Shown: piece after piece, positions 20,049 through 20,060 of the stretch
How the letters are laid out: the number at the start of each line of letters is the position of its first letter
Position numbering within the stretch: the first letter of the stretch is position 1
Sequence record: PV648359
Source of the DNA: Escherichia phage LF82-1
DNA: 64,000 nt
Strand: one strand, 5' to 3'
Translations under genes and position numbers: made by a program
The notes under the pieces: model-generated
What the model saw: only the letters and a program-made list of their open reading frames with translations
Told to the model about the DNA's origin: nothing
Database searches by the model: none

Positions 20049-20060
20049 TATTTATAAATA
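20049..20060. promoter_or_regulatory. palindromic late promoter TATTTATAAATA serving divergent genes 26/25 and 51
   Basis: 12-nt perfect palindrome containing TATAAATA on both strands in the 47-bp divergent intergenic region. Confidence 0.65.

Follow-up and report, generated by a model that had tools for sequence, protein, structure and literature searches.

In phage T4, the promoter pair lying between the divergent baseplate genes 26 and 51 was reportedly mapped by Scarlato et al. in 1989 (Virology 171:475), in work said to have described how [quoted passage not shown], and Gruidl et al. published related work in 1991 (Virology 184:359). The T4 sequence records NC_000866 and AF158101 hold no promoter features, and a review of late transcription remarks that some T4 consensus sites remain unproven as active in vivo. 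In RB69, an HMM scan ranks a plus-strand late promoter (Pl:118620, score 12.7) sixth and a minus-strand late promoter (Pl:118672, score 11.2) tenth of 31 (PMC1524935). The two 43-bp promoter windows given by Nolan et al. (2006) both cover 118641–118652, the RB69 copy of the palindrome considered here, and the main text of that paper (Virol J 3:30) contains no word starting with "palindrom". The GenBank record OL960577 carries promoter features at 118266–118273 (minus strand) and 118270–118277 (plus strand), the same overlapping octamers at the same junction, annotated from similarity to the T4 consensus alone. The divergent late-promoter pair is therefore already known, having been predicted for RB69 and annotated in OL960577.

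Two properties of T4-type late promoters bear on this arrangement. The late box occupies positions −13 to −6 (Nolan et al., 2006; PMC1524935), and a late promoter needs no −35 element (late-transcription review). A promoter that lacks a −35 element, and whose consensus opens with the self-complementary TATA, can be laid over a second copy on the other strand within 12 bp. A comparable overlap occurs in Aeromonas phage Aeh1, for which CTAAATA is the late consensus (Nolan et al., 2006; PMC1524935): at about 122804–122817 of NC_005260, between gene 4 (minus strand) and the tail-tube-cap gene (plus strand), lies the perfect 14-bp palindrome TATTTAGCTAAATA, which consists of two consensus copies back to back with the central GC in common. 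Promoters have been predicted on both strands at that junction (Nolan et al., 2006; PMC1524935). In T4 genes e, soc and I-TevI, a late promoter sits inside a hairpin that sequesters the ribosome-binding site, and sequestration of ribosome-binding sites is also described for T4 genes 25 and 26 (late-transcription review).

The palindrome and its two late-promoter boxes

We analyzed a stretch of 64,000 nucleotides from Escherichia phage LF82-1 (PV648359), referred to below as the window. Over the region tested, it matches Escherichia phage LF82-2 (PV648360) base for base at the same coordinates (100% identity) and RB69 at 99.2% identity; it is 98.9% identical to SA35RD (OL960577), a Mosigvirus. 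Judged by its sequence, the phage is an RB69-like Mosigvirus and not T4. Gene names follow the RB69 annotation, in which uvsY, 25 and 26 are minus-strand genes and 51, 27, 28 and 29 are plus-strand genes. A gap of 47 bp (20031–20077) separates gene 26 from gene 51 and holds the 12-bp palindrome and the other junction features collected in Table 1. The gap sequence of RB69 is identical to that of the window, and the promoters described there are computational predictions only.

Table 1. Coordinates of the junction elements, flanking genes and late-transcription genes in the window.
Feature	Position	Strand	Details
12-bp perfect palindrome TATTTATAAATA	20049..20060		two opposite-strand TATAAATA octamers; central TATA (20053-20056) common to both
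Late-promoter box TATAAATA, rightward unit (gene 51, then 27, 28, 29)	20053..20060	+	RB69 Pl:118620; annotated in OL960577
Late-promoter box TATAAATA, leftward unit (gene 26, then 25)	20049..20056	-	RB69 Pl:118672; annotated in OL960577
Predicted late start, gene 51	20066	+	A, 6 nt past box; placed from box at -13 to -6; 12-nt leader
Predicted late start, gene 26	20043 (+/-2 nt)	-	placed from box at -13 to -6; leader about 13 nt
Left repeat arm: gene 26 SD (AAAGGAGT, 20042->20035) and ATG	20028..20042	-	inverted-repeat search
Right repeat arm: gene 51 SD (AAAGGAGT, 20066-20073) and ATG	20066..20080	+	inverted-repeat search
Gene 26, baseplate hub protein, 208 aa	19404..20030	-	start at 20030; PF12322 / phrog_150
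Gene 25, baseplate wedge subunit, 132 aa	19006..19404	-	directly downstream of gene 26
Gene 51, baseplate hub assembly protein, 250 aa	20078..20830	+	start at 20078; PF12322 / phrog_150
Genes 27, 28, 29 (baseplate hub and tail-length proteins)	20827..24249	+	packed closely after gene 51
Gene 33, late-transcription co-activator, 112 aa	51886..52224	-	PF16805, 3.5e-26; trans-acting factor for the promoter
dsbA, 89 aa	52202..52471	-	PF11126, 3.3e-37; overlaps gene 33

A preliminary description of the window had claimed that the segment 20049–20060 is its own reverse complement and presents the octamer to both strands, that it lies inside the 47-bp gap between genes 26/25 (minus strand) and 51 (plus strand), and that it constitutes a compact bidirectional late promoter. 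Reading the bases bears out the first of these statements, and the open reading frame starts at 20030 and 20078 confirm the second; the third gains support, as a prediction, from the octamers on the two strands, the conservation of the 12-mer, the RB69 HMM scores and the annotation of OL960577. The exact consensus octamer is present on both strands, with 20057–20060 unique to the plus-strand copy and 20049–20052 unique to the minus-strand copy. Both flanking genes are late virion genes, each on the correct strand for its box and each with a strong Shine-Dalgarno sequence (SD) ahead of its start codon, and the distance from the end of the box to the ATG is 17 nt for gene 51 and 18 nt for gene 26. 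We consider it very probable that the palindrome comprises two gp55-dependent, T4-type late promoters placed back to back, with the first four bases (TATA) of the consensus common to both.

T4 carries the identical TATTTATAAATA at the same 26/51 junction, with the same 17 nt between box and ATG for gene 51. It differs from the window in the length of the gap (50 bp versus 47 bp), in the distance from box to ATG for gene 26 (21 nt versus 18 nt) and in the flanking bases, and the coding regions of the two phages share about 69% DNA identity. As a discovery, the element of the window is of little importance; it remains a tidy textbook example.

The window holds 20 copies of the octamer TATAAATA where 7.08 ± 2.47 would be expected, and none of 100 shuffled sequences reached 20. 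At 15 of these 20 sites, an SD-led open reading frame begins no more than 200 nt downstream in the same orientation; for 11 of them it begins 17–47 nt away. The palindrome TATTTATAAATA occurs once against 0.04 expected, and at least one copy arose in 4 of 100 shuffles. Taken on this genome alone, the palindrome exceeds chance by a modest margin, and it is the conservation from genus to genus that provides the strong evidence. The other octamers of the window bear on its outer bases as well. TATT is absent from −17 to −14 at all 18 other TATAAATA sites, which argues that late promoters are not generally constrained at these positions, and the outer four bases on each side of the palindrome are best explained as part of the octamer on the opposite strand. 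A sigma-70 scan found no −35/−10 pair in which the palindrome serves as the −10 element, and scans of the gap returned no sigma-70 promoter, terminator or Rfam family match.

Ribosome-binding sites facing each other across the gap

The palindrome lies in the loop of a larger inverted repeat, the arms of which are 15 nt each and 80% complementary and hold the SDs and start codons of genes 26 and 51. Because two ribosome-binding sites face each other here, complementarity between SD and anti-SD is automatic. RNA reading through the gap is predicted to fold at −10.4 kcal/mol on the minus strand (z −2.2) and at −16.4 kcal/mol on the plus strand (z −2.8), with the SD fully paired in each case; among representative genera, the predicted pairing takes in at least 80% of the SD in 20 of the 23 measurable cases. 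By these predictions, the read-through hairpins are modest.

The predicted starts at 20043 and 20066 fall at the inner edges of the repeat arms. Late RNAs would thus begin inside the repeat and lack its 5′ arm, which would leave their ribosome-binding sites free; in a read-through RNA, the SD would pair with an antisense copy of the SD belonging to the opposite gene. Such predicted pairing fits the sequestration described for T4 genes 25 and 26. The junction resembles genes e, soc and I-TevI in having an SD within an inverted repeat and a predicted late start between the arms. It differs from them in that the 5′ arm is the antisense of the neighboring gene's ribosome-binding site and in that the stems are modest.

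A candidate sigma-70-type site could serve as a source of read-through RNA. This pattern match runs from 20898 to 20871 on the minus strand (TTGCCA, a 16-nt spacer and TG-TATAAT, with 11 of 12 positions matching); it falls shortly after gene 27 begins, runs antisense to both gene 27 and gene 51, and is directed toward gene 26. The RB69 tables of Nolan et al. list no early or middle promoter at 119.0–119.6 kb of RB69, the region of this candidate. Further along the leftward unit, the gene 26 stop and the gene 25 start overlap by one base, the two open reading frames meeting at 19404 (19402–19406); for the gene 26/25 junction of T-even phages, Malys and Nivinskas (2009) reportedly describe a split ribosome-binding site with intervening RNA structure. 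Within gene 51, the segment 20547–20600 gives sub-threshold Rfam matches on both strands to Plastid-psbA 3′UTR families (27–31 bits against gathering thresholds of 48–57) and is probably a chance hairpin.

Conservation of the junction and competing interpretations

To follow the junction across T4-like phages, a check that the preliminary description had proposed for T-even phages, we compared 15 annotated phages and 52 further IMG/VR loci fetched by gp51 alignment. The 69 loci covered reduced to 40 distinct upstream sequences; these loci are related by descent, and the sequence counts do not represent independent events. The exact 12-mer is present in 32 of the 40 distinct junction sequences. 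It is found in the genera Mosigvirus, Tequatrovirus (T4, T2), Karamvirus, Gelderlandvirus, Gaprivervirus, Kagamiyamavirus, Jiaodavirus and Muldoonvirus, and in the Acinetobacter-phage genera Zedzedvirus and Lazarusvirus. In phages with the exact 12-mer, the gap ranges from 45 to 67 bp and the neighboring bases vary freely: when the sequences are anchored on the palindrome, the four positions on either side of it hold only 0.14–0.47 bits. The 2.0 bits inside the 12-mer are circular, being measured on sequences anchored on that same 12-mer, and the evidence lies in the flank values and in the count of 32 in 40.

The remaining junction sequences depart from the 12-mer in three ways. In four of the 40, all from Aeromonas phages, the palindrome is TATTTAAATA, 10 bp long and perfect; each strand then reads TTTAAATA, which departs from the consensus by a single mismatch at −12. 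This variant was seen in five Aeromonas-phage loci, about 20–30 nt upstream of gene 51. The late-promoter list of Nolan et al. for phage 44RR has no site near the corresponding position, and scans built on the consensus may miss such a variant. In three sequences, from RB49-like phages (Krischvirus), an extra T (TATTTTATAAATA) interrupts the palindrome, so that an exact box survives on the plus strand alone; in the one locus measured, of four, the gap is 70 bp long. Since these phages keep the plus-strand box only, the back-to-back arrangement is not obligatory. A separate minus-strand candidate, ACTAAATA, is located 4 bp to the left in the RB49-like loci. The last of the 40 sequences is CATTTATAAATA.

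The Aeh1 palindrome TATTTAGCTAAATA resembles that of the window in its overlapping back-to-back late promoters, its position between divergent late genes and the presence of SDs on both sides. It differs in lying at another junction, in its length of 14 bp with a 2-bp overlap, and in being built from its own consensus, (G)CTAAATA. We also considered an overlapping pair at the 26/51 junction of Aeh1 itself and rejected it: the pair lies at the junction of gene 4 and the tail-tube-cap gene, and gene 26 of Aeh1 is co-directional with gene 54. That Aeh1 constructs a palindromic design from its own consensus favors a function as a promoter on two strands over one as a fixed protein-binding site. 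The 32 exact 12-mers, the low-information flanks, the lack of TATT at other late promoters of the window and the Aeromonas palindromes suggest that selection acts on both octamers. Palindromy that extends across at least 10 genera, and that is rebuilt from another consensus in Aeh1, offers a useful confirmation that both directions appear to be under selection.

We weighed this reading against the possibility that only one octamer works, most likely the plus-strand box of gene 51, with the other an A/T-rich accident and the promoter of genes 26 and 25 elsewhere. The RB49-like phages, which retain an exact box on the plus strand only, are consistent with this possibility, as are the minus-strand sigma-70-type match at 20898→20871, which could feed genes 26 and 25, and the existence of consensus sites without proof of activity (late-transcription review). 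However, positions 20049–20052 are no part of the plus-strand octamer and yet stay unchanged in 32 of the 40 distinct junctions while their neighbors vary, and TATT occupies the equivalent positions in no other late promoter of the window. The minus-strand site, moreover, scores 11.2 and ranks 10 of 31 in the RB69 HMM scan, and the Aeromonas phages change the sequence yet retain its palindromy. On this evidence we judge a promoter working in a single direction to be highly unlikely.

Perfect dyad symmetry could also mark the site of a dimeric DNA-binding protein, with the likeness to promoters secondary. Such a protein might be DsbA, which the window encodes, or another phage regulator, and T4 DsbA reportedly binds at A/T-rich sites that overlap with two late promoters (late-transcription review). 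The same review, however, gives DsbA a low affinity and its gene as non-essential, and the late-promoter consensus fully explains each half of the palindrome; the palindrome is 10, 12 or 14 bp long according to lineage, with halves that stay near each lineage's own consensus, which would leave no fixed dimer geometry. We find this explanation extremely improbable. Finally, the element might be mainly structural, a DNA cruciform or the loop of an RNA hairpin, and the 12-mer no promoter at all; the whole gap has dyad symmetry, with its 15-nt arms 80% complementary, and the folding energies lie below those of shuffled sequences. Yet the 12-mer, composed entirely of A and T, adds little stability and sits in the loop of the predicted folds, where sequence needs no invariance; the stem arms, which are the ribosome-binding sites, vary more than the 12-mer does, and no Rfam family matches within the gap. 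We therefore rejected a cruciform or hairpin as the primary function, the 12-mer being in the loop and better conserved than the stems, and regard a structural role of this kind as barely credible.

Proposed course of late transcription and the surrounding genes

If the palindrome is read as two late promoters back to back, the plus-strand box would direct a late mRNA from about 20066 through genes 51-27-28-29, and the minus-strand box would direct one from about 20043 through genes 26-25. The predicted starts are about 23 bp apart, so that the transcripts would not overlap, and their leaders would begin essentially at the SDs. Judging from the sequence and its conservation, initiation probably occurs in both directions in this phage. 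A polymerase on one promoter would cover the box, start and ribosome-binding site of the other, and the two promoters would therefore exclude each other on any one DNA molecule.

What selects the direction on a given copy may lie in the sliding clamp. In the activated late complex, gp45 is located at the upstream end, near DNA at −39 and −36/−35, and the orientation of the clamp, set by the strand with the 3′-OH at the loading site, fixes the polarity of the activated promoter (late-transcription review). Since the orientation in which gp45 is loaded fixes promoter polarity, the direction of transcription from the junction is probably selected by the orientation of the clamp. A further step, in which the junction would act as a toggle, seems to us unlikely: the direction from which clamps arrive, given by the fork or by the nicked strand, would govern how much leftward (26-25) transcription occurs relative to rightward (51-27-28-29), and the exact symmetry would be kept to balance the two directions. 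Under a related reading, equally doubtful, the junction marks an inversion or duplication that set genes 26 and 51 head to head. The junction could nevertheless serve as a natural test bed for control of late transcription by clamp orientation.

Each of the proteins gp26 and gp51 matches the whole profile of PF12322 (T4_baseplate) and belongs to the PHROG phrog_150, and the two align with 25% identity (BLASTP E 2e-10); on these similarities, genes 26 and 51 are paralogs. In Slopekvirus-like phages and Pectobacterium phage POP12, the gene order is 54-51-26-25, all on one strand. This order elsewhere implies that the head-to-head arrangement of 26 and 51 here reflects an inversion in one or other of the two lineages.

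Beyond the rightward baseplate unit, a strong candidate hairpin lies at 26333–26355, with a 10-bp G+C-rich stem (AAAGGGAGAC...GTCTCCCTTT) followed by a T run on the minus strand. This hairpin is likely a terminator downstream of the rightward unit and is possibly bidirectional.

The components of late transcription were drawn from two sources, gp33 from the window and gp55, gp45 and gp44/62 from the RB69 annotation, in which gp55, gp45, gp44 and gp62 are all encoded. In the window, gene 33 belongs to a minus-strand cluster, 32 - 59 - 33 - dsbA, at 50211–52471. The open reading frames of dsbA and gene 33 overlap at 52202–52224, as the late-transcription review describes for relatives of T4. A further minus-strand TATAAATA is found at 51206–51199, 88 nt upstream of the gene 32 start.
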